Shown here piece after piece: positions 23,051 to 47,240 of a stretch of DNA of 64,000 bases; within the stretch, counting starts at the first letter, position 1; every line of letters starts with the position of its first letter. Made by a program: the position numbers and the translations under genes. The notes under the pieces were generated by a model. It saw nothing but the letters and a program-made list of their open reading frames with translations, did not search any database and had not been told where the DNA came from. Source of the DNA: Candidatus Latescibacterota bacterium (GTDB lineage: Bacteria; Latescibacterota; UBA2968; GCA-2709665); NCBI GenBank assembly GCA_965237675.1, contig OZ250150.1, positions 1,440,001 to 1,504,000 of the forward strand, given 5' to 3'.

Positions 23051-23225
23051 GCCCTTTTTCTTTCTCGCCAAAGAAAAAGGGCCAAAAAGAACGGCGTTGC
23101 TCAGACGCCGCAGGGCTGGTTTTTCCACGAATCTCTCCAGTAAATGGAACGTGAGACTGTGCCCTGAGACCCACAAAGCATGCACGCGACGGCGGTGCTG
23201 AACGGATCAGCGCGGAAAAACCCCC
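23051..23225. repeat. Structured intergenic element C, copy 1 (putative ncRNA/ssDNA element)
   Basis: Shares GCCCTTTTTCTT..AAGAAAAAGGGC CAAAAAGAACGGCG, the TTTTCCRCG..CGCGGAAAA stem, TGCCCT and ACGGA with four other copies. Confidence 0.8.
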
Positions 23226-23500
23226 AACCCCCAGACCGTTCGTGTGACAGGAGAACCTATGAAGCCGGGGGCTATTCCGCGCCGTCGTTGCATTTGTAGG
23301 GGCAGCACTTAGGTTTGCCCACGTCACGGCGCAAATATCGCTGGTTGACATCGCCGGTCCGTATCGCTAACCGGTGTTGGCTGACCGCTATCTGCTGACG
23401 GCTGCTTTACCCCGCCGGGCGGTCCTCTTGCTTCTCCCGTCTTCCGTCTTGCCTTCGTTTTTGAAATAGTTTATCTTAAGTTAATCTCTAGAAAGGATCC

Positions 23501-23749
23501 GTGATGCCAGAGATAATCAACGCCAAACAGCTGCGAGCGCGTTTGAAGGAGGTCGTCGCAAAGGTGCGGCACGGTGAGCGCTTTACGGTCCTGTATCGCA
23601 GTCGTCCGGCTTTTGACATCGTCCCCGTTGGCAGTCCAACGATGGGAAGCACGCCGCTCGAATCCGATTCACTCTACCAGGCCCCGCCCGTAGGCGCATC
23701 GGAATCGGGAGACGTTGCCGCACGGCATGACGAGGTGTTGTACCGGTGA
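23501..23749 (+). CDS. Phd/YefM-family antitoxin
   Basis: IINAKQLRARLKEVVAKVRHGERFTVLYRSRPAFDIVP; overlaps the toxin start (GTGA). Confidence 0.85.
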   Translation: MMPEIINAKQLRARLKEVVAKVRHGERFTVLYRSRPAFDIVPVGSPTMGSTPLESDSLYQAPPVGASESGDVAARHDEVLYR

Positions 23750-24153
23750 AAGAAATGTTCGCGGATACCGCGGGATGGGTTGCGGCGGCGGATAGCCGCG
23801 ATGCGAAGGGCTCAGCAGTACGGGAAGCGCGGGACCGCTGGCTGTCGTCCGGAGGCCTGTTGACGACGACCGACTACGTCATCGACGAGACGCTCACGAC
23901 CATCCGGTTCCGTCTTGGTCTCGATGCCGCCGAGGCCTGGTGGGTGCAAATCGACGGCTCATCCCGTCTGAGGATCGAGTCCATCGACGAAACGCGAAGA
24001 GAACGGGCGCGGTCACTCTTCTTCGGATATCGGGACAAGAAATTCTCCTTTACGGATTGCTGCAGCTTCGTTCTCATGCGAGAGTTGCGAATACAACGGG
24101 TGTTGACGCTGGACCATCATTTCCTACAGATGGGGTTTGAGGTAATTCCATGA
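23746..24153 (+). CDS. vapC: PIN-domain (VapC) toxin
   Basis: FADTAGWVA, TTDYVIDETLT, SFTDCCSF, LTLDHHF acidic PIN motifs. Confidence 0.9.
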   Translation: MKEMFADTAGWVAAADSRDAKGSAVREARDRWLSSGGLLTTTDYVIDETLTTIRFRLGLDAAEAWWVQIDGSSRLRIESIDETRRERARSLFFGYRDKKFSFTDCCSFVLMRELRIQRVLTLDHHFLQMGFEVIP

Positions 24154-24534
24154 ACCGGCTAGACGTAAGAGGGTAGAGGTGAGACGCGGAAAAATTCCCA
24201 ACAACAGCGGGCGGGTGAGAGGTAAGACCTGTGGGGACGTGAGAAAACCGGACCCATGGAACGGCCTGGAATTGAGTTGGCATTCGCACGAGTGTTTCGT
24301 AACAAGTGGACTCACCAGTTCGACCATCACATCTAAGGCGCTATTGTCGAGATCACATTGAAAGCGACCTCAAGGAAGCCCTCTTGCCGTCGTTTTTTTC
24401 TTGCCATTATCCCCCATTTCCGCGATCATATAGTTGGTTGCCTGCTGACGGCACGCGTCCTCAATGAAACATTCGGTATACTTGAATGTAAGCAAACTCA
24501 ATCCGTCTCCAACCCTTCATCGAAGGGCTGCACA

Positions 24535-24759
24535 ATGCCGATCATGCTCTCCAAAACCTACGCAGCCTTTGTCGCCGCGGGCACTCCGGACGCGCACGCC
24601 CGCGAAGCCGCCGAAGAAATCGCAGACTTCGAACACCGCCTAACGGGTATAGAGTCCCGCCTGCAGAACATCGAAGGCGACATCAGGCTTGTGAAGTGGA
24701 TGCTTGGTGTTGTCCTGGCATGTGTCGCCATTCCGCTGGTAAAGTCGTTGATCGGCTAA
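24535..24759 (+). CDS. Small coiled-coil protein with C-terminal TM helix
   Basis: TYAAFVAAG.PDAHAREAAEEIA..LVKWMLGVVLA; compact ORF. Confidence 0.6.
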   Translation: MPIMLSKTYAAFVAAGTPDAHAREAAEEIADFEHRLTGIESRLQNIEGDIRLVKWMLGVVLACVAIPLVKSLIG

Positions 24760-25349
24760 ACCCATCCGCCTGTGGTGCCCGCCTGTTGGTAGACAAGTGC
24801 CCGGCATTGCAGGCAGTTCTACCGTGCGCCCTCCAATAATTGTGCCCGATCGCAAGGCGTCGCGCAATTAACACCACCACCGAACCCCTCGAAGTTCGCG
24901 CCCCTTCTGCTGGCCTCCCTTCCGGTGCCCGTACACTCCCGCCATATACAACTAATTCCGCAATCATACTGATCGCCTGCCCTGTTAGATTCGGAGTGTA
25001 GGTTGTCTCTCCCCGAATCTTACTGATAGAGGCGTTTTTGCATCTTAGTCGGAGTGTCTCAGTGGATGTCGTCACACGTTTGTGCTCAGCCAATCGTCTT
25101 CTGGGTTATCCGACTCTTGCATTTGTATCACTTCGCGGATTTCGTCTCGAAGCTCTTCATTGTCATTTTTCATTATATGTCTCCTGACATTCCAGCTTAA
25201 GTACCGGAATCGAAATGCATTGGAGAAGCCTCTGCGAAGAAGATCAACGCCAATACCCGTAACTCGCGGGGTTGTTTATCGGTATTTTTCGTTTCTTCAC
25301 TCAATTCTCTTCGGGCTGTAGTCGTCCCGCATGTAGTCAACAGGCCTAA

Positions 25350-25508
25350 CAGCCCGTTGAAAAAGTCCATCCGGGCTGCATCCGGCCCTTGTGGCCGAAT
25401 TACTGCGTTGCACTCCCTCTCCGAATCCCCGATTCGACGCGGTCGCGCGCCTTGTCTTCGGCCACAATGACTCGGCCTCGCCTGCAGAGCGACTTTTTCA
25501 ACGGACTG
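25350..25508. mobile_element. 159-bp MITE, copy 1
   Basis: TIRs CAGCCCGTTGAAAAAGTC / GACTTTTTCAACGGACTG; 4-bp direct repeat CTAA on both sides; second copy at 37357-37516. Confidence 0.9.
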
Positions 25509-26044
25509 CTAAGGCCGTTATCAATGAGACTGTGGTTTCCTCGTGCACGTATCCATGCACGCACACATTTCAGCAAATTGCCGACGTTCTGAAGACTTGA
25601 GACCTCAAAGATCATGTGTTTCTGAAAGAGGAAGCCGAAGTGCTCCTGTAAAACAGCGCTGATAAGATGCATGATGTCATCGATTTCATCGTTGCTCAAC
25701 GGATAATCCGTTTGAATTGACTTCGTTTCGTCGAATTACTTTTTGTCCATATGGGCTATCGTTTTGTCCCTGTGCGCCTTGATTCGATCAATGACATCTT
25801 TCTGAGCTTCCAGTTGGGCAATCTGATCATCAATTGTGGCGCGATACTCTTGGGGTTGGATGGGTTCGTAGTCAGAATGGGTTGCATTGTAGCGAGTTGG
25901 CTTCATTGATGCTGCGTGCTCCTTCGCTTTTCTCAGCCAGTCAAGCAGCGATCTGTCCTCTGCCTCCGACAGGAACATTGACATTTCGACCAGGACTATT
26001 CGCGAAATGCTGTAGGTGGCAAGCTGAAAGAAGTAATGACCTAG

Positions 26045-27732
26045 CCCGATTAATTCATGAATCGTCAGATAGAGCATTTTAAGGAAGCAGAAAGAGCTTC
26101 CGAGTGAGACAAGAAACGAAAGCGCATGGGCTGTGACGGATTTGGCGTGTTCAAGCCGTTTGGGCGGCGCCTGCTTTGCCTCGTGACGTCAGGTTGACCT
26201 CGATGCCCGTGTCAAGCGCACAGACTTCTCCATGACCTTTGGTGGTGGTCGATGCAAATGTGAAGGCGGGGTCAGCACGTCGATGGGTTATGGAACACCC
26301 GTTGCCAGATTATAGAGGATCTTGCCATAAAGGTGTTTGAGTGGAAACGCCGTTGGCAGATGGAACTTGATTTTAGTTTTCAACTCACAAACGCGCCCGG
26401 CGACTTTCAAGAGACGATTTTGCAGGGTATTGAACTGTGCGTTGGTCCACTTCGTGCCGCGCAATCCGATTGCAGCCAGGCTGTGCATCAGGACATAGGC
26501 GGCGCTGTGGAGAAAGAGACGGAAGTGATTGGCCTGGAAGGTGTGACAAGAGGTGCGATCGGAATGGAGAAAGGTCTTGTGATTTTTGATGAAGTTTTCC
26601 ATCCTGCCGCGTGTGCAATAGGCGGTTTTGTAGATGAATGACGGTTGGGCGCGCTTCAGGTTGGTGACCACGAATCGGATATTGACACCTTGCGGTGTCA
26701 CTTCCGCCTTGCAGACGATGCGTTGTGGACACGCCCAGGTGCCGGCCTGATAGGCCCAACAGCGATAAAGGCGCACGGTTTCTCCGGAATCGGCATACCG
26801 CGTTTTGGCCTGGTCTATCAAGGACTGTGCCTTCCGCAGGAGTTTGGCGTTGCCGTTCTGTCCGAGGACAAAATACACATCTTCTTCCTCACACAACACG
26901 TGCACTTCCGGACACGAAAAATGCGCATCGCCACGTAACAGGATCTCCACGTCGGGCCAGGCTTTACGCAGGTAGGCGATCACCCGTTTGAGGATGGTGA
27001 CGATCTCTTTACCCGCAGGCCGCCTGCCAGGACGCAAGACCGTCGTGATCAACTTGCCGGTTTGGCCTTCATAGATATGCAGGGGCTGGTAGCAATAGCC
27101 ATTGAAATACGCATTGAACAACGACAACTGTTGAGACCCATGCACCTTGTCTTCGGTGTCATCGATGTCCAACAGAATGGCTTCCGGCGGTTCCTCATAC
27201 GAGGCGACAAACACATCCGCAAAGGCCTTGGCGATCCGATACAAATCGGTTCTGCTGATGCGGTTCTCGAACCGACTCATCGTGGGCTGACTGGCCAGGT
27301 CCGCGCCAGACAACGGCAACCGATCACAGGCCGCCTTGAAGCCGGGGTCCTCGCGTAACGTCTTGCAATCATTCGCATCCTCATACCCACAGGCCATCTG
27401 AAAGACACGTTGTTTGATCAGGTCCATCATCGAATGATGTACGTAACTTTGATGTCGATGATCGGTGAGCGCCGCAACCATCCGATGCAAAATGCCGACA
27501 TTGGCCTCGACCTCACGAAGCAGCATCACCCCGACGTCGGTCGTCAGCACGCCCCCGTCGAACGTGGCTTCTACCTGCCTACCAGAAAGACTTGCGAAAG
27601 ACAACCTGTGATGTTTATCTTGAACTCCCACGGTAGTTTCCTCCTGTTTCATTGTTATTAGGTTATTTGCGTAACCATAATATAATACAATGACTTGGGT
27701 ATGGAAACTACCTTTTTTGTGAATTATTCAGG
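26045..27732 (-). mobile_element. IS1380-family insertion sequence
   Basis: Imperfect TIRs CCCGATTAATTCAT / CCTGAATAATTCAC; 4-bp target duplication CTAG (26041-44, 27733-36). Confidence 0.9.
26288..27652 (-). CDS. IS1380-family DDE transposase
   Basis: FDGGVLTTDVG, GYEDAND..LREDP, LASQPTMSRFEN, LDIDDT, LRGDAHF, RGRMENFIK. Confidence 0.93.
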   Translation of the reverse strand: MKQEETTVGVQDKHHRLSFASLSGRQVEATFDGGVLTTDVGVMLLREVEANVGILHRMVAALTDHRHQSYVHHSMMDLIKQRVFQMACGYEDANDCKTLREDPGFKAACDRLPLSGADLASQPTMSRFENRISRTDLYRIAKAFADVFVASYEEPPEAILLDIDDTEDKVHGSQQLSLFNAYFNGYCYQPLHIYEGQTGKLITTVLRPGRRPAGKEIVTILKRVIAYLRKAWPDVEILLRGDAHFSCPEVHVLCEEEDVYFVLGQNGNAKLLRKAQSLIDQAKTRYADSGETVRLYRCWAYQAGTWACPQRIVCKAEVTPQGVNIRFVVTNLKRAQPSFIYKTAYCTRGRMENFIKNHKTFLHSDRTSCHTFQANHFRLFLHSAAYVLMHSLAAIGLRGTKWTNAQFNTLQNRLLKVAGRVCELKTKIKFHLPTAFPLKHLYGKILYNLATGVP

Positions 27733-28024
27733 CTAGGTTAAATGCCTCGATGTTGTCCGGTGATTTTGCATTTGTGGTCCATTCAGAGATACTGTTGAGT
27801 TGTTGACGCAAGCTGTTGATATTGAGATATCGATTAACCAGCTTCTCAAGATAGCTCCGAAGTTCATCAGGCGGATTTTTCATCGAAAACGACCTCCCAA
27901 ATGTGATTCGGGCTGCAATGAGATGTGCCCTATTGGCCTTCATGCCCTGCAAATTTGGTTCTGTTGAATTGTCAGGTTTCGGTTTTCATCCTGTCCATCC
28001 TGTTTATCCATGTTACCCTGCTCT

Positions 28025-28288
28025 TCATTTCACCAGCCCCTTTCCCCGTCCCCGGCGCAACGCCAGTTTCTGATCCGCGCGACGTGACGGATAGGCCGTG
28101 ACGACCCGATCGTCGCGGATAACGACCTTGCGATTCTTGATTTGGCGGATGGCATCCCGGTTACGCATCAGCCAGGTGTCGTTGTCAACCCGTGTTCCGT
28201 ACTTCTCAATGAGCCGGATATCTCTCTCGCGAATACCGCGCTGCTGCATGCGCGTCCGGCCATGTTTTGTGCAATCGATATCGTTCAT
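28025..28288 (-). CDS. Small DUF4258-like basic protein (possible toxin)
   Basis: TKHGRTRMQQRGI..VVIRDDRVVTAY pattern. Confidence 0.55.
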   Translation of the reverse strand: MNDIDCTKHGRTRMQQRGIRERDIRLIEKYGTRVDNDTWLMRNRDAIRQIKNRKVVIRDDRVVTAYPSRRADQKLALRRGRGKGLVK

Positions 28289-28500
28289 TCGTCGTCTTTT
28301 TCGTTGTCTGGATCTTTCCCCAGAGTATAAATTTCCTCCAACATCCTTGTTATCCTCATTAATTCACACAAAAGGAAGTCTCCTTGCTCAAGTCATTGTA
28401 TTCTGGTTACTTAATTAACCTTATAACAATGAACCTGGAGCAACCTGGCGTGGAGGCTCAAGATAATCATCACAGAATCCTTTTCGCGAGTCTTTAGTGA

Positions 28501-28755
28501 GGACCTCTCCTCCCGGCCCCGTCTCCTGCGAGGAGAGGGGGAGTTGAACCAGGCGTTGCGTAAATACTGTTTTTTTACGCTCTGATTGATCGGAGAATGT
28601 CACCTCGTCACTTTCTCGATCGCAACACGCTGACCTATTACAATATTTCGCCGGGATTTTTTCAACAATGGAAACGTCTTCAGCCAATCCAACGGTTCAT
28701 TAACCGATCACGGTTCCCCCTTCCTCTCAGGAAGGGGGTTAGGGGGTAGGTCTCG
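28501..28755. repeat. REP doublet (family E), reverse-oriented diverged copy
   Basis: GGACCTCTCCTCCCGGCCCC..GGAGAGGGGGAG and TTCCCCCTTCCT..AGGAAGGGGGTTAGGGGGTAGGTCTCG match the reverse complement of 38911-39093. Confidence 0.7.
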
Positions 28756-28888
28756 CAGGTCTCGCCAGAGCTGTCGTTCTTCTTCTAACATGTCAGCCCG
28801 CAAACCTCACGCCGACTTCACTTTCTCGATTCACTCGGAAGCTGTTTCTGCTTCCTGATACCGCTATCCGTGACAATTCATGAATTAA

Positions 28889-29827
28889 TCAGGTTATTTT
28901 GTTCGATGGATCACTGGACACGCTACGTACTAATACTTCGCTCAGTTCCTTGTAGATGTTTGGCAGTTTCCCTTCAAGCCACTTCTGACGCTCCTCGGCT
29001 TGGTCATCCGCCATCAGGTCTTCTGGGATCTCGGACAGCCGCGCACATCCGGTTTCAAGAGTTCTTCTGGCATTGGAGGAGCCATTTGTCACGCGTTCGA
29101 TCTCATCATGCCAGAGGTTATAGTCGGGGAATTCCGCCGGTGAGCCAAAACTGAGATCGCCTTTGTCCAGGTCTACAACGCCAGGGATCGCGAGTTCGGC
29201 CGCCAACTTGTACAAATAGCTTGCGAATGGATTGTTTTCTGTGGGATCGAAGGCTTGGTCTGTCATTCCACCGCTATCATCGAGCAGATGTTCGCCGAAG
29301 AGATCGTTCTCGTGAATAGAGTTATGTTCTGCGCCTCCATTCATATCCGCGACCACGAGGGCACTCACGAATACGCCATGCCCAGACGCGATTTGCTCGA
29401 AATGGCTATTTGCTTCGTGCAATTCCTTGCGCCTATGGGCGAGACTTCCTTCGGCCAGAAGAACGAAGAAGAGCGGCGCCATCGTGATAATATCGGTGGC
29501 GTTAACGCCGTATCGGCGTTTGATCAGATCGTACGCCAGTCGGACCTTCGGCGGGATCTGCGCGCCGATCTGGATGGGGTCCGGATCGGCCTCGGGCGCC
29601 TTGTCGGACTCCGGAAGCGGCAATTCACCCTTGAGCACACCCGGTTCGACGTCAAGCGCTTTGGCCAAGAGATTCACGGTGTCCTCCCGAGTGTTCTGGC
29701 ACCGTTCCGGTTCGTTTTCCAGCCGCTGAATCGTGCGGGCGGAGATTCCGGACCGGTCGGCCAGATGCCGACGTGACAGCCGTTTTCCCTTGCGTAGGTT
29801 GAGGAGGCGATCATGTTCGATTTTCAT
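28889..29827 (-). CDS. XRE-family HTH transcriptional regulator with long C-terminal domain
   Basis: LLNLRKGKRLSRRHLADRSGISARTIQRLEN..TVNLLAKALDVEPGVL; RBS AAGGAG. Confidence 0.85.
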   Translation of the reverse strand: MKIEHDRLLNLRKGKRLSRRHLADRSGISARTIQRLENEPERCQNTREDTVNLLAKALDVEPGVLKGELPLPESDKAPEADPDPIQIGAQIPPKVRLAYDLIKRRYGVNATDIITMAPLFFVLLAEGSLAHRRKELHEANSHFEQIASGHGVFVSALVVADMNGGAEHNSIHENDLFGEHLLDDSGGMTDQAFDPTENNPFASYLYKLAAELAIPGVVDLDKGDLSFGSPAEFPDYNLWHDEIERVTNGSSNARRTLETGCARLSEIPEDLMADDQAEERQKWLEGKLPNIYKELSEVLVRSVSSDPSNKIT

Positions 29828-30064
29828 GGCGTAGCTCCTTTATTTTTTCAAGGCGGGTTGCCTTGCAATCGAGACGCCATGAATATATCTGAATATTGTT
29901 TGTATTATAAGAGGCTATATAGAGAAATATCTACAATATTATTATATATAAATAGGAAATATTGCCTATAATGACCGTTTTAGCTTGTGAAAATCCGCTT
30001 CTGTCTGCCAACCCGATGCAAGAGATTAGACAAATGCGGACATTGCGCCGGGGACCCCTCACGC

Positions 30065-30426
30065 GGGCGACCACAAGGGTCGCCCCTACAAATGCAACAT
30101 GAGCGCGGACATCGGCAAATTGATATGGCACGGTTGATGCTGGCCGCTATTTGCTGCCCGGGAGCGGTCTCGATACGAACTTCCGGGAAGGTCCGTGACG
30201 TCCGGCCTGCATGCGCTTCCACCAACGCGATGGTATACCACCTCTACGCTTCCCTTTGTGCTTGCAAGGCGACATGATTATGGCTTTAATGACAGGCATG
30301 GCGCATCCATATCAACATACGGGCGGTTCACGAACCGCCCCTACGAGAAACCGTGACGACGGTCATCGAAACCGACGACGGCGTTGATTTTGGTGCCGCC
30401 CGGGCGACCACAAGGGTCGCCCCTAC
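30065..30426. repeat. Cluster of three GTAG-type REP palindromes
   Basis: GGGCGACCACAAGGGTCGCCCCTAC at 30065 and 30402; GGGCGGTTCACGAACCGCCCCTAC at 30321; relatives near 36084, 39249 and 46889-48860. Confidence 0.8.
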
Positions 30427-30580
30427 AAAAACGAAACATCCGTGAATTGATATCACCGCCGTTGAGCTGACCGCTGAATGCTGTAAGCTATTCGCTGTAT
30501 TCCCCTTTGTGTATACGTATGAGTACAGTTCCGTACGCTCGCAAACAGGAAGCCAATGTAAATTCGGTTTGTAGTACCAA

Positions 30581-30930
30581 CCGGAGGACCACCAGAGCAG
30601 AGCGCGCTATTCCGTTCATCTCGGAGATCGGGTACCCGCCCTCGCTGGTAGGGCAACGGGTTGTGTGCATCCTGTGAGGGTGTTCGCGCTGTGCATAAGT
30701 ACGGCCCCGCGCCCAGCGGCGACTTTTGGTTACATAATGCGGTAAGAAGAAAGAGGCAAGAAGGGAGAGGGGTTGGTAACTTTGTCATATGACACCCTCG
30801 GAGCCGGACTTTCGCTAAAGGGAATACAGAAGTGGATCGCGAAAGAGGGCGCGTAACCGGTGGGTGGCTGAGTGGCCTTCTTACCTCTACCGTCTTACGT
30901 CTCACGGTTTTAAGGAACCCTCCGGAGGCA
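30581..30930. repeat. 350-bp direct repeat, copy 1
   Basis: Identical by eye to 31459-31808 (offset 878). Confidence 0.92.
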
Positions 30931-31048
30931 TGGAATCTGGGGAGATGTGGGTTTTGTTTTTGTCTTTTGCTTCTCGCTTCCCGCCGAAGGCAGGAAACTT
31001 GGGGAGAGGTTGTGATTTTGGAGTTAAATTCTTATTTATTATTTTCAC

Positions 31049-31223
31049 GCCCTTTTTCTTGTACGCCCAAGAAAAAGGGCCAAAAAGAACGGCGCCGCTC
31101 AAACGCCGCGGGGCTGCTTTTCCGCGAAACCCCTCAACAGTGTCGACACGCTTTGGTGCCCTTTGTCCCTTCCATCCGTTCCTGAACCATGGTGCTGGAC
31201 GGAATAGCGCGGAAAAGCCCCCC
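31049..31223. repeat. Structured intergenic element C, copy 2
   Basis: Same scaffold as copy 1; stem variant GCTTTTCCGCG/CGCGGAAAAGC. Confidence 0.8.
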
Positions 31224-31458
31224 ACGCAGCCACCGGGCGGGTTAGAGTGAAGCGCGAGGGACCGCGGGGTGCTCTGACCGTTGTACGCAGGACATTTCGC
31301 GCCGTTGTTGGAATTGTAGGGCCACCCACGGGTCGCCCACGTCAGGGCAATGTTATGGGTAATGGTCTTCGCCAAGCCATATTGCAACGGACTCTCGCCG
31401 AGTTGAAGTTGACCGCTCATCTTCCGAAAGCCAGTCGGTTTTCGATCGCGAGCCCTGT

Positions 31459-31808
31459 CCGGAGGACCACCAGAGCAGAGCGCGCTATTCCGTTCATCTC
31501 GGAGATCGGGTACCCGCCCTCGCTGGTAGGGCAACGGGTTGTGTGCATCCTGTGAGGGTGTTCGCGCTGTGCATAAGTACGGCCCCGCGCCCAGCGGCGA
31601 CTTTTGGTTACATAATGCGGTAAGAAGAAAGAGGCAAGAAGGGAGAGGGGTTGGTAACTTTGTCATATGACACCCTCGGAGCCGGACTTTCGCTAAAGGG
31701 AATACAGAAGTGGATCGCGAAAGAGGGCGCGTAACCGGTGGGTGGCTGAGTGGCCTTCTTACCTCTACCGTCTTACGTCTCACGGTTTTAAGGAACCCTC
31801 CGGAGGCA
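31459..31808. repeat. 350-bp direct repeat, copy 2
   Basis: Identical by eye to 30581-30930. Confidence 0.92.
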
Positions 31809-31885
31809 GGGAATTTGGGGAGAGGTGGAATGGTAGAATCTTTACCATTCCTCCTCCCCTCATCTCACATTTCTTATTTTTCTCC

Positions 31886-32060
31886 GCCCTTTTTCTTTCT
31901 CGCCAGAGAAAAAGGGCCAAAAAGAACGGCGCTGCCCAGACGCCGCAGGGCTGGTTTTTCCGCGAATTACCTTTGGGGCATAACCTGGTCCGGTGCCCTG
32001 CATACCCATGCGCATACACCAGACGGCGGTGCTGAACGGAAAAACGCGGAAAAACCCCCC
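31886..32060. repeat. Structured intergenic element C, copy 3
   Basis: Same scaffold as the other copies. Confidence 0.8.
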
Positions 32061-32215
32061 ACACCACCACCGGGCGGGGGAGAGCGAAACGCGAGGGACC
32101 GCAGGCCCTTCCACCGCCCCTACGAATGCAACATGGTCGCGAGGTTTGGGGGTCGCGGGGTGGTCCTCTTGCTTCTTCCTTCTTGCGTCTCACGCTTTTC
32201 TTGATGGAGCTTGCC

Positions 32216-33121
32216 ATGGATCGTGATGAAGTTCGGGCGCATCTGACAGGGATCATTTCGTCGATCGCGACGCCGTTCAATCAGGACGGCAGCGTGGACT
32301 ACGATGGCTTGCGGAACCAGATCGATTTCGTGCTGGCGGGGGGAAGCCGCACCGTGCTGCTGACGGTGGGCGACAGCCACTATATCTGTATGTCCGAGGC
32401 GGAAATCGCGGAGGTGACGCGGGTCGCGTGCGAGCATACGGCCGGCCGGGGGATGGTGGTGGCGGCCGATCGGTATTACGATACGCGGCGCTCGGTCGCC
32501 TTTGCGTCGTTCGCGAAGGACCTGGGAGCCGACGTGCTGATGGTGTTGCCACCGAACTGGGGGCCGTCCTGTACGGTGGAAACGATGGTCGAACACTACG
32601 GCGAGGTGTCCGGGACGATGCCGGTTATGATCGTAACGGGCGCCTTTTCCGCGCACGGGCCGGAGTTCGGACTGGAGGTCATAGATGAAACGTTGAATCG
32701 ATTCGAAAATGTCGTCGCCATCAAGGATGACATGTGCGGGGATTTCGCGCGGCGGCTGTGCCTGGTCGCGCACGAACGGGTGGCCGTATTCGCCGGGGGG
32801 CAGAAGGTGAACCACATCAATATGTGGCCGTACGGATGCGATGGGTATATGTCGACGTATATCACCTTCAAGCCGGAGGTCGCGCGGCGATATTGGGACG
32901 CGATTCAGAATACGGACGTCAAAGCGGCGAGGACGATTATCCGGGAATACGACATGCCGTTTTTCGACTGTATCGGAAAGCTGACCGGCGGGTGGAACGC
33001 GGGGTTTCACGGGGCGATGGAGATCTTCGGCGTGGCGAAGCGATGGCGCCGGAAGCCCTACTATTCATTGAACGACGAGGAGATGGAGGGTCTGAGGGAA
33101 TTCTTCAGAAGCTGTCTTTAA
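32216..33121 (+). CDS. Dihydrodipicolinate synthase / N-acetylneuraminate lyase family aldolase
   Basis: TPFNQDGSVDYDGL, LGADVLMVLPP, NVVAIKD Schiff-base lysine. Confidence 0.85.
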   Translation: MDRDEVRAHLTGIISSIATPFNQDGSVDYDGLRNQIDFVLAGGSRTVLLTVGDSHYICMSEAEIAEVTRVACEHTAGRGMVVAADRYYDTRRSVAFASFAKDLGADVLMVLPPNWGPSCTVETMVEHYGEVSGTMPVMIVTGAFSAHGPEFGLEVIDETLNRFENVVAIKDDMCGDFARRLCLVAHERVAVFAGGQKVNHINMWPYGCDGYMSTYITFKPEVARRYWDAIQNTDVKAARTIIREYDMPFFDCIGKLTGGWNAGFHGAMEIFGVAKRWRRKPYYSLNDEEMEGLREFFRSCL

Positions 33122-33326
33122 ATTCCTGGTGCGTTTCCGAGCGCGAGCGAAAAGGTGTCGGACCAGGCGGGCGAATCCGACTGTGAGAGGCGAGCGAGCG
33201 CAGCCTCGACCTCGAAGGACGGGTGGATTTGACCAACGCCGACCGACGCCTTTGCAGCCGCGCGAAGACCGCCGGGGGTTTTGAGACAGCTTCTTAGGTC
33301 GAAAAAGCTTCTGCAGGTGCGCTGAA

Positions 33327-37356: not shown

Positions 37357-37516
37357 CAGTCCGTTGATAAAGTCGCTCTGCAGGCGAGGCCGAGTCATTG
37401 TGGCCGAGGACAAGGCGCGCGACCGCGTCGAATCGGGGGATTCGGGGAGGGAGTGCAACGCAGTAATTCGGCCACAAGGGCCGGATGCAGCCCGGATGGA
37501 CTTTTTCAACGGGCTG
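37357..37516. mobile_element. 160-bp MITE, copy 2 (inverted relative to copy 1)
   Basis: Same TIRs; 4-bp direct repeat CTAT on both sides. Confidence 0.9.
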
Positions 37517-37581
37517 CTATTGCGGGTCACTCACCGTTCCGCAAAGGACTCGCTAAAGGGATCCGCGCCTCGGCCGTGCGT

Positions 37582-38658: not shown

Positions 38659-38910
38659 TGTTGCAGGTACTCCTGGGAAGGTCCGGATAGAAAGCAGAAT
38701 TGTTATGTTATATGCATTTTGCTAGCCGGTTTCAGTTGTACACTTCGGACTGATCGCTGTCCACAAATATCGGAGATAATTACATATCTATATTTTTTCG
38801 TGCCCTTTTTCTTGCTCACTTGCACAGACCGGGTACATGTAACTGGTGTTCGGACACATGGGTTACACTTTTTTCGGGATGATCCGGCGGCGGCAACGAA
38901 ACCGGGTGCG

Positions 38911-39093
38911 GTCGTCGTTATAGGCGTCTTGAACCAGACGAGACCTACCCCCTATCCCCCTTCCTGAAGGAAGGGGGAACTGTCATCGGTTGATCGCATC
39001 TCAATCGATGATAAAATCCCCCTGACATATTGTGACGGGTCAACGCTTGTCTCCCCCTTTCCTTTAGGAGAGGGGGCCGGGGGGAGAGGTCCC
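38911..39093. repeat. REP doublet (family E), ~183 bp
   Basis: Near-identical to 42960-43143; two purine/pyrimidine hairpins. Confidence 0.85.
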
Positions 39094-39373
39094 ACGGACC
39101 GTGCGGTCGTGAGATAGACCCGGAAGGACCGCCGCATGGTCGCTTCAAAAGGAACCCGCCGGAGGCAGCGGTCAGGAAAAACAGCTATCAGCCAAAACCG
39201 GTTAACGATATGGACACGCGATATCAATATCACGGATGTCGGGTTTTCGTAGGGGCGGTTCGGGAACCGCCCGCCTTGCGGCCCCGCATGATTACCTTTA
39301 TCCCGGCCGGTGGGGGAGAGGGGTCTTCTCGGCCTGTCGCGGATTTTACCCCTGGTGCGACCGGTTGTGGAGA

Positions 39374-39545
39374 GGGGGGTTTTTCCGTGTTATTCCGTCC
39401 AGCAGTGCCGCCTGGTGTATACTCGGGGAGTCTCAGGGCAATGTCTCAAGATTTCTCCAATGAGGCGATTCGCGGAAAAACCGGCCCCGTGCCGAACGGC
39501 GCCGTTCTTTTTGGTCCTTTTTCTTGGGCGTACAAGAAAAAGGAC
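39374..39545. repeat. Structured intergenic element C, copy 4 (opposite orientation)
   Basis: Reverse complement matches the scaffold of the other four copies. Confidence 0.8.
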
Positions 39546-39735
39546 AAAGAGAAAAAAAAGGTTGAGGGGTAAGAAATGCCTATGTATGCCCGGAACGCAG
39601 TTCCAAAAAAAGCCGTAAGACGTAAGACGGGAGAAGTGAGAGGACCGCCAGGTGTCTTCTGTTTGAAAGGCGTAACCGGAGGCATCGATCCTGTCCGGAT
39701 CGATGGTTTCCCGGACAATTCGATGGAGGGACGAC

Positions 39736-42700: not shown

Positions 42701-42924
42701 CGGAAACGCCGATGTTGAAGCTGGAAGTCGTGCGTGACCTGTTCGATGGAAAGACCATTTCACACACGCGGGGGCAAACCGGACCTCGGTTGAAAACTGC
42801 GGAGAAGGGAAAGCTTATACTGGCCGATACCGCCGAGGCGGCGGCGTTTTCGGGAAAACCCTTCTACGTATACGACGTCGCGCCTGGAGATTCATGGCGG
42901 ATAGCGGATGTCTGGCACTGTTGA
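39736..42924 (+). CDS. Heparinase II/III-family polysaccharide lyase-like protein
   Basis: DGKFWYDSIAYS, PMIGD, HGHGHMDKLAVNL, DLGYP, TASHFTAVIDG; RBS GGAGGG. Confidence 0.8.
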   Translation: MVRMPVKGEVVEDETAFRTLCEGLHLREPLPDHEPDRYLRAAGFYENVIGAGKRQGRVGIYNREDLERARRNAERLAWARDMVDEIVRDADFWARFSDETLYAMVPTQNPLALTVAQYDGCPIHGGNRSTLEGDLLHPYQWRCNIGGEWWYEGIEVENPGTGERVRVVDDGPGWVAPEGFMNAGVTYYFTGAYRCYLLYRLFSNPYAPQTGAGHQGRPASQALALAYAFTGERKYARKAGILLNRLAQVYGRLRGIKEGYDAYDKSKDPIRGYVGEASGREQFFLNAVAVTYDLIFEAMRDDEEVAGFFQARGGEDFDGDGRVTTRDIIFNIHRNLFAYAYEFLDRTLPIAGGDFLTSSLYSLLKVGACLENGAMIRQALEAPTGLYNVMSNSFFRDGKFWYDSIAYSTGNIREAVDAAEWTLGFQDGEQFTSPMDLYHDPRFRLREMMEFARAVDCDGRVPMIGDTGGGRNRVLRTPYSLEDEIGYLRLPEARDLYARRILAGAGGDPDAARKDGDLFLLFHCEPWNGTVEAGDISPESDVLHDSGFCILRAGDQQSSRRHVVLNYGKGNHGHGHMDKLAVNLIAYGYDLSADLGYPPSWVAPKKAGWETHTASHFTAVIDGENQVFATGSLNLFVDGPWVRLADASGERAYPGLANGYRRAVALVPVDEQRAYVVDLFRISGGGEHDYGLHSWAGENAERFEIALAEGVALEAQRDGTLAGPDVPFGGAPGYGFVKDVARARTDGGLTATWRTEPAGAGIRLHMPGETGSTVMTGLAEGAGLQGHSPWDRYVIVRRTGGEGKENRFMGVLEPYSGTPYIDGVETLFVAGRKAGLRVAIGKRSHDIVYGVGGVVEGEVDGLPFRFEGDWAFVEREGDTIRKAQVVNGKQFRYGDVEMEGPGALAGRVDAVEIDDRRIVVTSPVPLPVDGSLTGRTIVLSHPDYICNSTYEITGVEAAGQGRYRIALEEMDFLLSEGRINSVEGASLLTETPMLKLEVVRDLFDGKTISHTRGQTGPRLKTAEKGKLILADTAEAAAFSGKPFYVYDVAPGDSWRIADVWHC

Positions 42925-42959
42925 AGTTTCTGAGGCGCAGGCAGGGAATCTGGGGAGAT

Positions 42960-43143
42960 GTCGTCGTTATGGGCGTTTTGAACCAGACGAGACCTACCCC
43001 CTATCCCCCTTCCTGAAGGAAGGGGGGAACTGTCATCGGTTGATCGCATCGCAATCGATGATAAAATCCACCTGGCATATTGTGACGGGTAAACGCTTGT
43101 CTCCCCCTTTCCTTTAGGAGAGGGGGCCGGGGGGAGAGGTCCC
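42960..43143. repeat. REP doublet (family E), direct copy
   Basis: Near-identical to 38911-39093. Confidence 0.85.
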
Positions 43144-43261
43144 CGTGGCCGTCGTGGATTGGCATCGCCAGGACGTATGGCAATCTGCTTTTTGCTTTTC
43201 GTTTCTAGCTGATAGCTGTGTTTCTGACTGCTGATAGCTGAATTAAAAAAAAGGATCCACG

Positions 43262-44320
43262 ATGAACACCATCGATTGTCGCAGGTTTCCTTCAGCTACC
43301 GAGGTGCATCTCTGCCGCGACTGCGGCTATTTTCCCGTTCTCATCCATGTGCGCGGCGAGGAAATCCTGGCCGCGGAACGCGCCGGAGCGGGTCACGTGG
43401 GTGTTAACGGACGCCTGGAGGCGGTTCGTTCGCCGGACGGCGGGCGGACGTGGGGGGCGCCGGTCGTTATTGTGGACACGCAGGTGGACGACCGGAATCC
43501 GGCCGTGGGCGTGGCCCCCGATGGGGCGGTTGTGCTGGCCTACCACGCCCAGGGATCCTATGGCGAAGACGGAAGCTGGATGCCGCAGTTGCGCCGTGTG
43601 CAGATGCGCCTGACCCGTTCCCGGGACGGAGGTCGAACGTGGGAGGACTCCGAACCCCTCGGCTTCAAGGAGATGGAAAAGCACTCCGCGTACGGCCGTA
43701 TTGTCACCCTTCCCGGAGGGACGATGCTGCTACCGCTTTACGGTTCCCATATCCATTCCGGGGACGAGACGGGCGATTGCGCGTATGTTCTGCGTTCGGA
43801 CGACAGCGGGCGGAACTGGGATCGTCCGTCGCTGATTGCCGAAGGGTACAACGAAACGGCCCTGCTCCTGACGTCCGGCGGTGTTCTGCTGGCAGCGATG
43901 CGTTCCGCTGACCGGGGGGGCTTGATCGCGGTGTGTCATTCCACGGACGGCGGGTACACATGGGACGCACCGTTGGAGGTGACCGGCGGACGGGAACACC
44001 CTGCCGACCTGACGTTGCTATCCAACGATTGGATTCTTATGGTGCATGGCGTGCGGCACGAACCTTTCGGCGTGCAGGCCCGCGTGAGCAAAGACGCGGG
44101 GCGGACCTGGAGCGGTCGGCTGATCGTGTGCGATGACCTGGGCGACAGCGATCTGGGGTACCCCTCTACCGTGAGGCTGGGGGAGCGGCTTGTGACGGCC
44201 TATTACAGCGCGCCCAAAGCGTGGAATGCGCCCGACTACGTGGGAAAGGGCGCCTTTGCTCGGTCGCTTCTCTATAGCGAGGTCGACCTGATCGATGCGT
44301 TAACCCGAGATTCCGCATAG
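43262..44320 (+). CDS. BNR/Asp-box sialidase-family protein
   Basis: Five Asp boxes (SPDGGRTW, SRDGGRTW, SDDSGRNW, STDGGYTW, SKDAGRTW); DLGYPS. Confidence 0.85.
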   Translation: MNTIDCRRFPSATEVHLCRDCGYFPVLIHVRGEEILAAERAGAGHVGVNGRLEAVRSPDGGRTWGAPVVIVDTQVDDRNPAVGVAPDGAVVLAYHAQGSYGEDGSWMPQLRRVQMRLTRSRDGGRTWEDSEPLGFKEMEKHSAYGRIVTLPGGTMLLPLYGSHIHSGDETGDCAYVLRSDDSGRNWDRPSLIAEGYNETALLLTSGGVLLAAMRSADRGGLIAVCHSTDGGYTWDAPLEVTGGREHPADLTLLSNDWILMVHGVRHEPFGVQARVSKDAGRTWSGRLIVCDDLGDSDLGYPSTVRLGERLVTAYYSAPKAWNAPDYVGKGAFARSLLYSEVDLIDALTRDSA

Positions 44321-44333
44321 AAGGGAACTTCCG

Positions 44334-45593
44334 ATGAATTTTGGCCGCAAGGTCCAGGAAATCGATACCCTGGTTGAGAAGCACACGACATTTCGCGAAT
44401 GCAGTTTGAACCTTGTCGCGTCGGAGAACAGGCCCAGCCCGCTTGTCGAGCGATTGATCGTGGATGATCTGGACCACAGGTACGGGTCCTATTCCGGTAT
44501 CGATCCGCGAAACCGGGGGTATCCCGGGAATGCGTTCCTCATGCAGATCGAGGAGATGGCCCAGGACCTGGCGAAGCGGCTCTTCGGGGCGGCTTATGTC
44601 GACCTGCGACCGCTCTCGGGGAATATTGCAGGGATTATCGCCGTGTTTGGGCTGGGTCGTCCGGGAGATACGGCACTGGAGGTGCGTAACGGGCACATGT
44701 ATGCCGCCAAGCTGGCGAACTCGGACTTGAAAGTGAACCTGAAGTCGATTCCGATACCATGGGATTGGAAGAAGTACAATATAGATCTGGATCGGACGGT
44801 CTCGCTGATTCGCGAGCACCGTCCCGGACTGGTGATCGTCGGATCGGCGCTTTTCCTTTTTCCCCAGCCGGTACGGGAACTGAAAGACGCGATGAATCGG
44901 TACAGTCCCGGTTCGCACCTGATTTACGATGCGGCCCATGTGATGGGATTGATCGCTGGCGGGCGGTTTCAGTCTCCCCTTAAGGAAGGCGCCGATGTGA
45001 TCATTACGAGTACCCATAAGACGCTTGCCGGTCCGCAGGGGGGAATGATTCTGACCGACAACAAAGACGTTGCCGAGCGCATTGCAAAGGCAACCGTGCC
45101 GTTGATGATCGCCAACCATCACCTGAGCCGCCTGCCGTCGCTTGCGGGCACGTTCCTGGAGTGGATGGCGTGCGGGGAGGCGCATGCGGACGCAATAATC
45201 GGCAATGCCAGGGCGCTGGGCCGGGCGTTCGACGCACAGGGGGTGCCGGTTGTGGGGGCCGAACAGGGGTTCACCGAATCTCACACCGTGCTGCCGATTG
45301 TTGAAGCGTTCGGCGAGGCCGGTACGCTGGCCAGACAGTTGGAGGCGTGTCATATTCTCGTCAATGCGGCCGGCGTTCCGGAAGAACTGGGGACGCACGG
45401 CCTGCGCATCGGCGTGCAGGAGGTGACCCGATACGGCATGACGAAGGCGAACGCGCCTGAGATCGCCGGCTGTATTCTGGATGTGCTGAGCCAGCGGGAC
45501 CCGGCAGGCGCCAGGGAACGGGCGATATCGCTGGCCAGGCAGTTTAACCGGGTGCGTTTTACCCTGGCGGATACCAATTCGGCTGTAACGTGA
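44334..45593 (+). CDS. Serine hydroxymethyltransferase-family PLP enzyme (divergent)
   Basis: LNLVASEN, YDAAHVMGLIAGG, TSTHKTLAGPQGG, GLRIGVQEVTR. Confidence 0.85.
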   Translation: MNFGRKVQEIDTLVEKHTTFRECSLNLVASENRPSPLVERLIVDDLDHRYGSYSGIDPRNRGYPGNAFLMQIEEMAQDLAKRLFGAAYVDLRPLSGNIAGIIAVFGLGRPGDTALEVRNGHMYAAKLANSDLKVNLKSIPIPWDWKKYNIDLDRTVSLIREHRPGLVIVGSALFLFPQPVRELKDAMNRYSPGSHLIYDAAHVMGLIAGGRFQSPLKEGADVIITSTHKTLAGPQGGMILTDNKDVAERIAKATVPLMIANHHLSRLPSLAGTFLEWMACGEAHADAIIGNARALGRAFDAQGVPVVGAEQGFTESHTVLPIVEAFGEAGTLARQLEACHILVNAAGVPEELGTHGLRIGVQEVTRYGMTKANAPEIAGCILDVLSQRDPAGARERAISLARQFNRVRFTLADTNSAVT

Positions 45594-45885
45594 TGGGCGA
45601 CATGTATTCAGGCACGGAATACCGGGTGAAGACCGCAACGCCGGCGATTTCGTTCGATCTTCATCCGCGCCCACGTTGAATTCGTAGGGGTAGCCCATGG
45701 GGTTGTCCACGTATTGGCGGGAACATCGCAGGTTGATTTCGCCGGTCCATATCGTAAACCGGTTTTAGCTGACGGCTGTAAGCTGAATGCTGATCGCTGA
45801 TTGTTGCGACCCATGGGGTTGTCCGCATGGCGACGCGGAACCGATCGACGTTTTGGACTGAGATTCTATACGTAAGGAGGATCCG

Positions 45886-46860
45886 ATGCCTTCAACGAAT
45901 ATTGTGGATCGACTCGAATGTGGCGCCACTCTGCTCCTGGACGGTGGAACAGGCTCCGAACTGCAGCGCAGAGGAATTGACGTGCTGAAAGGCGCCACGG
46001 CCGAGGGCGGGCTCGAGGCCTGGTCCGCCACGGCGAATATCGAAGTGCCCGAAGCGGTCAGGGAGGTCCACCGGGACTACCTGCGAGCGGGCGCCGATAT
46101 TATCATCAGCAACAACTTCTGGACGAGCCCGGCGCGAATGGCGCCGATTGGGCTGGGCGACCGATGGGAAGCATATGCCCGCGCAGCCGCGGAAAACGCG
46201 ATCGCGGCCCGCGACGCCGTAAACCCGGAGGCTTTCGTTGCGGGCGGCATCGCGCCTCCGTGTCTCCAGCGGCAGTCCGAGGGGAGAGAATCGGACGTCG
46301 CAACGATGGGAGAGAAAGCCTTTCGCAGGGAGCTTGGCGACCACGCGAAACTGCTGGCCGGGGTCGGCGTGGACGTGATCTGGGCGGAATACGTGGGGTA
46401 TATCGCGGACTGCGTGGCGGCCGTGGATGCGTGTGCGGAGGCGGGCTTGCCGGTGTTTCTGGGCGTGCGGCATATCCGGGAAGACGGAGGAATGCAATAC
46501 CACGAGCGGCTCGAAGCCCTGGCCGAGTCCCTGGAAGGCCACAGGGTCGACGGGGTTCTGATTATGTGCACGCCGCCGGAGGAAGTCTCGGCCGGACTAC
46601 CGCGCCTTCAGGACGCGTTCGACGGCCCGGTGGGCGCGTACCCCAACATCGGGTACCGTCCCCTGGCGCCGCTCGGATCCGCGGAAGGCGGAGAATCACC
46701 GGATGAGCCGGCCGAAATCTTGCAGCAGGGTGACAACACACCCGAGCGGCTGGGCGCGTTCGCACGGGAGTGGAAGGCGATGGGCGCGCGGATCATCGGC
46801 GGCTGCTGTGCGACGGGGCCGGAGCACATCCGGGCGATGCGACCGGCCGTAAAGGGATGA
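45886..46860 (+). CDS. Homocysteine S-methyltransferase family protein
   Basis: LLLDGGTGSELQRRG, HRDYLRAGADII, GAYPN, IIGGCCATGPEHI. Confidence 0.9.
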   Translation: MPSTNIVDRLECGATLLLDGGTGSELQRRGIDVLKGATAEGGLEAWSATANIEVPEAVREVHRDYLRAGADIIISNNFWTSPARMAPIGLGDRWEAYARAAAENAIAARDAVNPEAFVAGGIAPPCLQRQSEGRESDVATMGEKAFRRELGDHAKLLAGVGVDVIWAEYVGYIADCVAAVDACAEAGLPVFLGVRHIREDGGMQYHERLEALAESLEGHRVDGVLIMCTPPEEVSAGLPRLQDAFDGPVGAYPNIGYRPLAPLGSAEGGESPDEPAEILQQGDNTPERLGAFAREWKAMGARIIGGCCATGPEHIRAMRPAVKG

Positions 46861-47065
46861 GTTCACTCGTGGCGCCGTCGCTGCTTTTGTAGGGGCAACC
46901 CTTGTGGTTGGCCACATAGTGGCGCGTATATCGCTGGTTAACCTCGACGGTCCGTATCGAAAACCGCTGTAGGCGGGGTTGCGGTGTGGTCTTCTCACCT
47001 CTCCCGTCTTACGTCTAACCGCCGTTAGCTGACTGCTGATTTTGCATTAAATTCTTTTTTTCTTC

Positions 47066-47240
47066 GTCCTTTTTCTTGTACGCCCAAGAAAAAGGACCAA
47101 AAAGAACGGCGCCGCTCAGACGCCGCGGGGGCTCCATTTTCCGCAAATCTCCCCTGCGGAGAACACATGAAACGCTGCCCTGCGACCGTTGATGGCGTTC
47201 CAAGGCCACGTTGAAGAACGGATCACCGCGGAAAATGGCC
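47066..47240. repeat. Structured intergenic element C, copy 5
   Basis: Same scaffold; compensatory stem CCATTTTCCGC/GCGGAAAATGG. Confidence 0.8.

Follow-up and report, generated by a model that had tools for sequence, protein, structure and literature searches.

Five structured repeat units in the window

The window, a 64,000-nucleotide stretch of the genome of a Candidatus Latescibacterota bacterium (genome G000, C1:1440001-1504000), carries five copies of an interspersed structured repeat, called family A here. The original prediction, made from the letters of the window, had described five dispersed elements of about 175 bp; all of them were placed at the same positions by a covariance model (R1, see below) with 154-173 bits, and the order of parts it had given was correct. 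Read 5' to 3' on the strand used in that prediction (the + strand of the unit), each unit consists of a lead, which belongs to a few recurring types, a hairpin P1 of 13 bp with a 6-nt loop, an A-rich linker (CCAAAAAGAACGGCG), a small GC hairpin P2 of 4 bp that can be extended, the 5' arm of a stem P3, an interior, the 3' arm of P3 and a C-rich tail (CCCCCCAC.CCACCACCGG.CGG). P3 is a stem of 12 bp, extendable with a bulge to about 16 bp, and encloses the interior of about 80 nt, in which GAA, segment 1, TGSCCT, segment 2, (G)GACGGA and four bases follow one another up to the closing arm. The parts of the five copies, in window positions, are the following.

23023..23255, +: copy 1, whole unit with 5' lead and C-rich tail (nhmmer C1:1463023-1463255, 232 bits; model core 23050-23229, 154.3 bits)
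23051..23082, +: copy 1, P1, 13 bp with 6-nt loop (helix 1+2 paired in 95-99% of cells)
23097..23113, +: copy 1, P2, TTGC/GCAG (P2 variants covary; terminator-like on the - strand with TCTTTTTGG)
23117..23129, +: copy 1, P3 5' arm (helix 4, 94.4% of cells paired, 9 of 12 pairs changed on both sides)
23130..23210, +: copy 1, interior (segment 1 23130-23159, 30 nt; TGCCCT 23160-23165; segment 2 23166-23200, 35 nt; AACGGA 23201-23206; 4-nt spacer 23207-23210)
23211..23222, +: copy 1, P3 3' arm (anchor parse)
31023..31252, +: copy 2, whole unit (nhmmer 219.9 bits; model core 31048-31226, 173.3 bits; fold z -3.94 on +, -4.45 on -)
31049..31080, +: copy 2, P1 (pairing derivation and fold)
31095..31111, +: copy 2, P2, CCGC/GCGG (terminator-like on the - strand)
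31115..31126, +: copy 2, P3 5' arm (pairing derivation and anchor parse)
31127..31207, +: copy 2, interior (segment 1 31127-31156, 30 nt; TGCCCT 31157-31162; segment 2 31163-31197, 35 nt; GACGGA 31198-31203; spacer 31204-31207)
31208..31219, +: copy 2, P3 3' arm (anchor parse)
31859..32089, +: copy 3, whole unit (nhmmer 226.8 bits; model core 31885-32063, 158.1 bits)
31886..31917, +: copy 3, P1 (anchor parse)
31932..31948, +: copy 3, P2, CTGC/GCAG (terminator-like on the - strand)
31952..31964, +: copy 3, P3 5' arm (anchor parse)
31965..32044, +: copy 3, interior (segment 1 31965-31993, 29 nt; TGCCCT 31994-31999; segment 2 32000-32034, 35 nt; AACGGA 32035-32040; spacer 32041-32044)
32045..32056, +: copy 3, P3 3' arm (anchor parse)
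39345..39570, -: copy 4, whole unit, inverted (nhmmer 215.3 bits; model core 39371-39546 on -, 173.2 bits)
39514..39545, -: copy 4, P1 (anchor parse)
39487..39499, -: copy 4, P2, CCGT/ACGG with a short loop (anchor parse)
39471..39483, -: copy 4, P3 5' arm (anchor parse)
39390..39470, -: copy 4, interior (segment 1 39441-39470, 30 nt; TGCCCT 39435-39440; segment 2 39400-39434, 35 nt; GACGGA 39394-39399; spacer 39390-39393)
39378..39389, -: copy 4, P3 3' arm (anchor parse)
47038..47271, +: copy 5, whole unit (nhmmer 215.6 bits; model core 47065-47245, 154.1 bits)
47066..47097, +: copy 5, P1 (anchor parse)
47112..47128, +: copy 5, P2 (anchor parse)
47134..47145, +: copy 5, P3 5' arm, CCATTTTCCGCA (anchor parse)
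47146..47226, +: copy 5, interior (segment 1 47146-47175, 30 nt; TGCCCT 47176-47181; segment 2 47182-47216, 35 nt; AACGGA 47217-47222; spacer 47223-47226)
47227..47238, +: copy 5, P3 3' arm, CGCGGAAAATGG (anchor parse)

The anchor parse returned the segment lengths that had been counted by hand, namely 30, 30, 29, 30 and 30 nt for segment 1 and 35 nt in five of five copies for segment 2. The compensatory variants quoted for the enclosing stem (GGTTTTTCC/GGAAAAACC, GCTTTTCC/GGAAAAGC and CCATTTTCC/GGAAAATGG) are all present, as are the A-C mismatches in that stem, which were found in copies 1 and 5.

Covariation was determined on an alignment of 75 copies, taken from the window and from loci in roughly one and a half dozen genomes, with the three helices written on; R1 was built from that alignment, 150 matches were realigned and 143 distinct rows were scored. 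Standard pairs fill 94.1% of helix cells, compared with 86.6% in shuffles and 49-63% when the partners are slid by 1-3 columns. Changes on both sides occur in 17 of 29 pairs (340 cells), and none of 500 shuffles reaches any of the five measures, figures that are inflated by the relatedness of the copies and by the model-fitted alignment, as the tool itself warns. P2 was seen as CCGC/GCGG, CCGT/ACGG, CTGC/GCAG, CCCT/AGGG and CCCC/GGGG. The fold of the whole unit returns all three helices and beats dinucleotide shuffles (z of -3.94 on the + strand and -4.45 on the - strand, with 0 of 200 shuffles as good).

The interior is constant in length and variable in sequence. Among the 53 parsable copies of the 66 full ones in the source genome, segment 1 has 30, 31 or 29 nt in 43, 7 and 3 copies, segment 2 has 35 nt in 51 and 36 nt in 2, and the spacer has 4 nt in all 53. 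The 75 additional unique copies from other genomes gave 30, 31 or 29 nt in 43, 29 and 3 cases for segment 1, with 35 nt for segment 2 and 4 nt for the spacer in every one, so that in the pooled set segment 2 is 35 nt in 126/128 and the spacer 4 nt in 128/128. Despite this constancy, the interior is no more stable than its shuffles (mean z -0.02 and -0.23 on the two strands), and no helix or direct repeat in a fixed register was found among 24 representatives of less than 80% identity. The best interior column pair is paired in 77% of 124 unique sequences against 49% expected, the mutual information is dominated by subfamilies and RNAalifold retains the outer stem alone; hidden pairing or direct repeats in the interior were rejected on these results. 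A protein-coding gene was also rejected, the best frame being open in just 13 of the 41 copies (of 66) with an exact anchor.

The two segments had been called hypervariable. Variable they are, but not freely so: at 72% identity the 128 interiors, drawn from about 19 genomes, group into 45 clusters, many of them common to several species and the largest covering 11 genomes, and the start of segment 1 is semi-conserved (AAYC.CCTCAG.GG). In addition, the inner pairs of P3 track the length of segment 1, CCGTG/CACGG going with 31 nt in 27/31 copies, and this link indicates that lineages of units exist.

A superfamily of repeats in the Latescibacterota

The five copies, with 78% mean column identity in the alignment, are members of a larger repeat family. 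The genome-wide collection suggested in the original prediction was made by nhmmer with a five-copy profile and yielded, far beyond chance, 81 family-A matches above 50 bits in the 5.6-Mb genome, 66 of them full length; the total was 134 matches, many of the weak ones being reverse-strand echoes of the palindromic P1. Copies are clustered, with 12 on one strand inside 23 kb directly outside the window and 4 inside 1.5 kb. Similarity among copies climbs and drops sharply at the unit borders. Short-read contigs from four sequencing runs break at the repeats, with joints that derive from other copies; the family breaks short-read assemblies, and masking or modelling it in annotation is advisable.

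By BLAST, the family seemed limited to 18/21 genomes of the source's own bacterial family, whereas R1 gave matches in 61 of 151 sampled Latescibacterota genomes. Labelling the bacterial families of the sample f1, f2 and so on, the matches are distributed as f1 18/18, f2 28/30, f4 2/2, f9 4/6, f10 7/13 and f12 1/1, and none was obtained in the 64 genomes of f3. The number of copies per genome ranges from 1-6 to more than 100, three distant genomes having at least 56, at least 50 and at least 116 R1 matches. Public contigs with matches are titled Candidatus Latescibacterota, some of the bins being labelled Gemmatimonadota.

No named family had been recognised in the elements, and Rfam 15 likewise gave no match at gathering thresholds in the whole window; around copy 1, relaxing the E-value up to 10 gave chance-level miRNA and leader models only (best E 0.53). 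No published description of the family was found in those parts of the literature on Latescibacteria intergenic repeats and Latescibacterota noncoding RNA that were available in part. The five copies are part of a phylum-wide superfamily of non-coding structured interspersed repeats of about 180-230 nt per unit, which is previously undescribed.

A sister family, A2, was first noticed as weak opposite-strand matches beside some family-A copies. It follows the same plan, with the same P2 and the same unpaired motifs in unchanged order. Its 5' part is either a first hairpin of its own (GGTTCCTTTTG...CAAAAGGAACC) or a CT-rich lead, and its P3 is CAGCGCG/CGCGCTCTG. Eighteen full A2 copies (score above 200) are present in the genome, and 16 of them lie at most 367 bp from a family-A copy in opposite orientation, tail-to-tail or head-to-head. 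Two, which the original prediction had omitted together with the extra repeat modules around the copies, are in the window.

30535..30818, -: A2 copy, head-to-head with copy 2 across a 205-bp gap (A2 profile nhmmer C1:1470535-1470818, 236.6 bits; R1 30603-30688 on -, 27.3 bits)
31413..31696, -: A2 copy, tail-to-tail with copy 2 (161 bp) and head-to-head with copy 3 (A2 profile nhmmer 254.1 bits; R1 31481-31566 on -)

Since these two copies are interleaved with copies 2 and 3, the region from 30.5 to 32.1 kb reads A2(-), A(+), A2(-), A(+), followed by the DHDPS gene.

More distant relatives keep the architecture as well. In the f2 unit, P1 is TTTACTTTTCTTG/CAAGAAAAGTAAA and P3 is GATTTTCCGCG/CGCGGAAAATC, and the interior reads GAA, 29 nt, TGGCCT, 34 nt, ACGGA and 4 nt. 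The f4 unit has GGGCGCGCCGC/GCGGCGCGCCC as P3 and contains TGCCCC, while GACGGA has no clear counterpart. The distance between the stem arms is about 81 nt in family A, 78-80 nt in A2 (27/27) and f2 (13/13) and 84 nt in f4 (2/2); in A2, segment 1 has 29 nt in 26/27 copies and the spacer 3 nt in 27/27. The helices of A2, f2 and f4 are thus made of different sequence, and this rebuilding from other letters is a stronger argument for the structure than the shuffle statistics. The original view of a structured family selected for geometry is borne out by three covarying helices and by an interior length kept within 1 nt in 128 A, 27 A2 and 13 sister-family copies.

One f2 genus has only 1-6 R1 matches per genome. 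In this low-copy genus, 8 copies from 5 species have an identical stretch of about 85 nt, which runs from P1 to the 5' arm of P3, and differ in their interiors and most flanks. The neighbours of single copies in low-copy genomes are unrelated to each other (an epimerase, an HSDR_N-like protein and a DUF5128 protein). Since a single non-functional copy is expected to decay, the scaffold appears to be under selection.

Placement, turnover and candidate partners

Gene neighbours were counted on rough gene calls made for this analysis. The downstream gene is on the same strand in 46 copies and on the opposite strand in 35, and the upstream gene in 39 and 42, respectively. Tandem, divergent and convergent intergenic regions hold 50, 19 and 11 copies, the background by length being 67, 19 and 14%, and within tandem regions 30 copies are co-oriented and 20 anti-oriented. 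All copies are intergenic except one fusion, and placement is independent of the neighbouring genes. A riboswitch or 5' leader, hinted at by the window, fails genome-wide on the same counts (46 same against 35 opposite; intergenic types as in the background).

On the - strand, P2 and the U-tract behind it look like a terminator in copies 1-3 of the window and in one distant copy; every family keeps the A-rich linker from which this U-tract arises. As the acting strand we lean slightly towards the - strand, opposite to the one originally read. Counts of the pairs that would be G-U, 114 on the - strand and 74 on the + strand, point the same way but were rejected as a basis for strand assignment, being too weak and made of events that are not independent. 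The terminator-like P2, together with the strong folding on both strands, the intergenic placement and the simple GC hairpin held by empty orthologous sites, is what a host-used cis-acting element would show, as proposed for REP/BIME, with hairpins that would end or insulate transcription, or shield the 3' ends of mRNAs, and with passive spread of the repeats. This is very unlikely to be the explanation, since orientation is random to the neighbours (46 against 35, and 30 against 20 in tandem regions), convergent genes are not enriched (11/80 copies, for 14% of intergenic length), and a terminator needs neither a fixed interior of about 80 nt with three motifs nor a third long stem; arrays with 3-12 units between one pair of genes are also hard to explain in this way.

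Several side features of the window accompany the copies. Positions 20000-32000 have a lower GC content (51-56% against about 60% around). The accessory genes there code for a glyoxalase, an HTH protein, a Phd/PIN pair at 23501-24153 and an IS4-like DDE transposase at 26288-27652; a further pair, BrnT/CopG-like, is found at 47668-48154. The remaining genes of the copy-bearing span belong to sugar-acid and polysaccharide functions (DHDPS, MR_MLE, GFO/IDH/MocA, heparinase II/III-like, BNR). The intergenic regions in this part are mosaic, built from several repeat modules. One of these, a REP-like module in which GTAG precedes an imperfect GC palindrome (TTTGTAGGGGCA...TGCCCAC), is found at about 23270-23330 and downstream of copies 2 and 5; it adjoins many units and recurs in other intergenic regions. 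A CT-rich module (GGTCCTCTTGCTTCTCCCGTCTTCCGTCTT-like) at about 23395-23470, at 32150-32200 and before 47668 stands directly upstream of several gene starts and is preceded by a TTGACATCGC...TATCGCTAACCG module. An unrelated 184-bp repeat family is represented at 33107-33290, between the DHDPS and MR_MLE genes, and two related genomes contain dozens of copies. At its right end the repeat carries the end of the DHDPS gene in inverted form, and it is precisely absent at the orthologous junction of another species, where both genes abut with an overlap of about 6 bp.

Turnover was followed at orthologous loci. At locus L123 the gap measures 72-79 bp in three species, with a simple GC hairpin, and 377-508 bp with a unit in three others; empty orthologous sites hold a simpler GGGGCGAC...GTCGCCCC hairpin. 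The three filled species have the left flank and P1-P2 in common and unrelated interiors. Locus L122 holds a family-A unit of one and the same orientation in three species, an A2 unit running the opposite way in one, and no unit in two. For 79 of 129 copies from other genomes the flanks map to one interval of the source genome, and for 46 of these 79 copies that interval has a family-A copy; where there is exactly one, orientation is kept in 34/34. Interior identity in 18 parsable syntenic pairs is bimodal, with 14/18 at or below 61%, the 95th percentile of unrelated pairs, while the flanks average 86%. Such unlike interiors at syntenic sites in the same orientation indicate that units are replaced by other family members. 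The replacement could proceed by recombination or gene conversion between copies, or by repeated oriented insertion at a hotspot.

The original prediction had also considered that the element is non-autonomous and that an enzyme encoded elsewhere moves it. Gain, loss and replacement of copies between species are indeed seen, but the moving enzyme was not found: the IS110 recombinase (PF01548) gave no match in the 99.9%-complete genome, a control being positive in 6/14 reference genomes, and TnpB (PF07282) gave none either, IscB not being searched separately and Rfam HEARO having no match in the window. Y1 transposases gave three weak matches in the genome. Two of these genes are flanked by other repeats (up to 36 copies) and none by A or A2. 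No protein co-occurring next to the copies, as had been envisaged, emerged: Y1 is not co-inherited and the single-copy neighbours are unrelated.

One family-A unit runs into the C-terminal half of a Y1 transposase-like open reading frame (ORF), and this fusion is tandemly duplicated. The two fusion ORFs, C-terminal halves of a RAYT-like protein, have 135 and 125 aa (L002 14125-14532 and 14933-15310; C1 ~1579125-1580310), the N-terminal part being replaced by the family-A tail. The same locus contains, at C1 ~1582179-1582907 (L002 17179-17907), an open frame of about six tandem repeats of a unit of about 32 residues (…NHCNHCNHSQSQYSRRIRGPIPAYLSQLGPQSAL…), over which a second frame is open too. 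Elsewhere, a 209-aa Y1 (RAYT-like) gene at C1 ~1532686-1533636 lies between direct repeats of about 190 bp (L141 1090-1270 and 1855-2040), which include the gene's own 5' end and number up to about 36 in the genome; a hairpin with a 9-bp stem follows its stop codon.

A hairpin-dependent single-stranded DNA (ssDNA) transposon remnant, MITE- or REPIN-like and moved by an HUH or other transposase, would attribute the covariation to folding of the DNA strand. It could account for the high copy number, for the truncated copies (P1-P2 only or P2-P3 only), for presence and absence between species and for the opposite pairing of 16/18 full A2 copies with family A, which resembles REPIN inverted doublets; three Y1-like genes are in the genome, and the nearly balanced G-U and A-C counts are as expected for DNA. 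We consider it quite unlikely. The Y1 genes do not go with the element, there are no target-site duplications in filled against empty sites, and the ends of similarity differ from pair to pair without sharp common ends; moreover, a perfect scaffold in single-copy genomes is unexpected for a decaying non-autonomous element. The terminal inverted repeats of a MITE are also missing, the paired arms (P3) being internal.

The suggestion that the segments are guide- or target-like found no support in the searches. Against the genome with the units masked, 106 real segments had a mean best score of 27.40 bits and 530 shuffles one of 27.45. Interiors compared with their own 400-bp flanks gave no excess over the flanks of other copies (60 copies), and against the rRNA operon and 50 tRNAs, matches of at least 11 nt occurred in 9.4% of 128 interiors and in 9.6-10.1% of 1280 shuffles. 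The conserved motif had no match in a viral contig collection, a search that does not test the targets themselves. Trans-acting guide-like small RNAs or ssDNAs, in which the scaffold would be an effector handle and the segments of about 30 and 35 nt would specify phage or mobile DNA outside the searched databases, are nevertheless consistent with the spacer-like fixed lengths between conserved handles in every family, with interior types common to several species, with the scaffold perfectly conserved in genomes of 1-6 copies and with the independence of the copies from neighbouring genes. In addition, 3 of the 18 syntenic interiors are 97-100% identical, above their flanks at 86-93%, which would fit a sequence-specific function of the interior. 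Such guides seem unlikely, given the matches that do not exceed shuffles, the semi-conserved first half of segment 1, the absence from the genome of the RNA-guided enzyme families tested (IS110, TnpB) and the conserved motif missing from viral contigs, limited as this last search was to the motif. A bolder version, with units as genes for a new class of two-segment programmable RNA whose cassettes, the 30- and 35-nt segments, are swapped between loci by scaffold recombination and served by an effector present in much of the phylum, with neither CRISPR repeats nor a neighbouring enzyme gene, appears highly improbable.

Interpretation and comparison with known systems

Strict control of length in the interior, with control of neither sequence nor pairing, is the signature of a molecular ruler and implies a partner molecule. 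The explanation that we tentatively prefer, and that may account for these features, is a persistent non-autonomous structured repeat with a lifestyle like that of REPIN or BOX, whose scaffold is read by a protein and whose segments are measured spacers. The repeat would multiply, its copies overwriting one another via recombination at the conserved scaffold. A protein encoded elsewhere would recognise the folded strand, measuring the distance between motifs, and by this proposal its recognition is what keeps the scaffold intact. The recognised strand would probably be RNA read through the unit, and the two variable segments would be measured spacers between contact points and not guides. Observed are the family with its covarying helices, the fixed lengths, the distribution and the replacement at fixed loci; that a protein is the partner, that it reads RNA and not DNA, which strand acts and how copies arise are what we infer. 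A leader, a terminator by itself, an ordinary MITE, REP/RAYT, attC, bridge RNA and an rRNA guide do not agree with the data.

Several observations weigh against the measured-spacer explanation. P1 is the module kept most widely, and it would come after the proposed - strand terminator, an arrangement in better agreement with a + strand RNA; the AT-rich conserved lead 5' of P1 in some copies also suggests + strand transcription. The three nearly identical syntenic interiors would fit a role for their sequence. Without target-site duplications or sharp ends, no transposition mechanism is visible, and the partner enzyme was not found among IS110, TnpB and Y1, other transposase families not being searched and an IS4-like gene lying in the window. 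Y1 occurs in 7/14 genomes of the element-rich genus and in 19/64 of the element-free family f3. The inflation of the covariation figures belongs here as well. If the partner is a protein acting on RNA, the units would be a new RNA class; if the segments are guides, they would be a new kind of programmable system.

REPs and REPINs are non-coding intergenic hairpin repeats with tens to hundreds of copies, vertically inherited and long-lived in a lineage (PMC3116915, PMC3337134, bioRxiv 10.1101/2021.07.10.451892), by the parts of these sources drawn on here. To that extent, they resemble the present family in being intergenic hairpin repeats with many copies, a frequent arrangement that may correspond to inverted doublets, and vertical persistence. 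REPs are short palindromes of about 20-40 nt that depend on the single-copy Y1 transposase they flank. In contrast, the family described here has 180-280 nt, three helices and an unpaired interior of fixed length, and, unlike REP/RAYT, the Y1 genes in this genome are flanked by other repeats and not co-inherited with the element.

The pneumococcal BOX elements, as portrayed in the portion of the source used, are interspersed intergenic repeats with stable structures (PMC3049150). Both BOX and family A are modular, with outer modules pairing around a variable middle, and neither has a known mobilising enzyme. In BOX, the middle varies by the number of modules. There is no sequence relation between the two, and the middle of family A is fixed within 1 nt and has conserved unpaired motifs; moreover, its range is a whole phylum, whereas that of BOX is one genus.

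The bridge RNA of IS110 is encoded within the element beside the recombinase, and its loops match the target and the element ends, according to the parts of the two reports considered (PMC11208160, PMC11208158). On that description, the likeness lies in a structured non-coding unit of about 180 nt that carries a 5' hairpin and in which conserved sequence brackets two variable stretches. However, no IS110 recombinase is present in this genome, the interiors do not match their flanks or the genome, and they lack two stem-closed internal loops.

attC sites are imperfect hairpins of 57-141 nt, paired over their full length, with RYYYAAC/GTTRRRY cores. They share with family A a folded single strand that is constrained in length, with conserved ends and a variable middle, and same-orientation arrays by small accessory genes (toxin-antitoxin pairs, glyoxalase genes). 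They differ in that about 80 nt are unpaired in family A, the RYYYAAC/GTTRRRY cores are absent and the copies are scattered over the chromosome. Archaeal C/D-box guide RNAs combine a closing stem with conserved boxes and with two variable stretches whose length is fixed, an arrangement close to that of the unit, but family A shows no excess of rRNA or tRNA complementarity and no C/D boxes, and its segments exceed theirs in length about threefold.

A few well-studied bacteria are the known sources of structured interspersed repeats (REP/BIME, REPIN, BOX, ERIC, Correia), and the persistence of such repeats is an open question. The phylum of family A has few cultured members, or none. The family is distinctive in its number, from one to more than 100 copies per genome, in the replacement of units by other members at fixed loci, and in a three-helix architecture and an interior length that are kept while every helix is rebuilt from different sequence.

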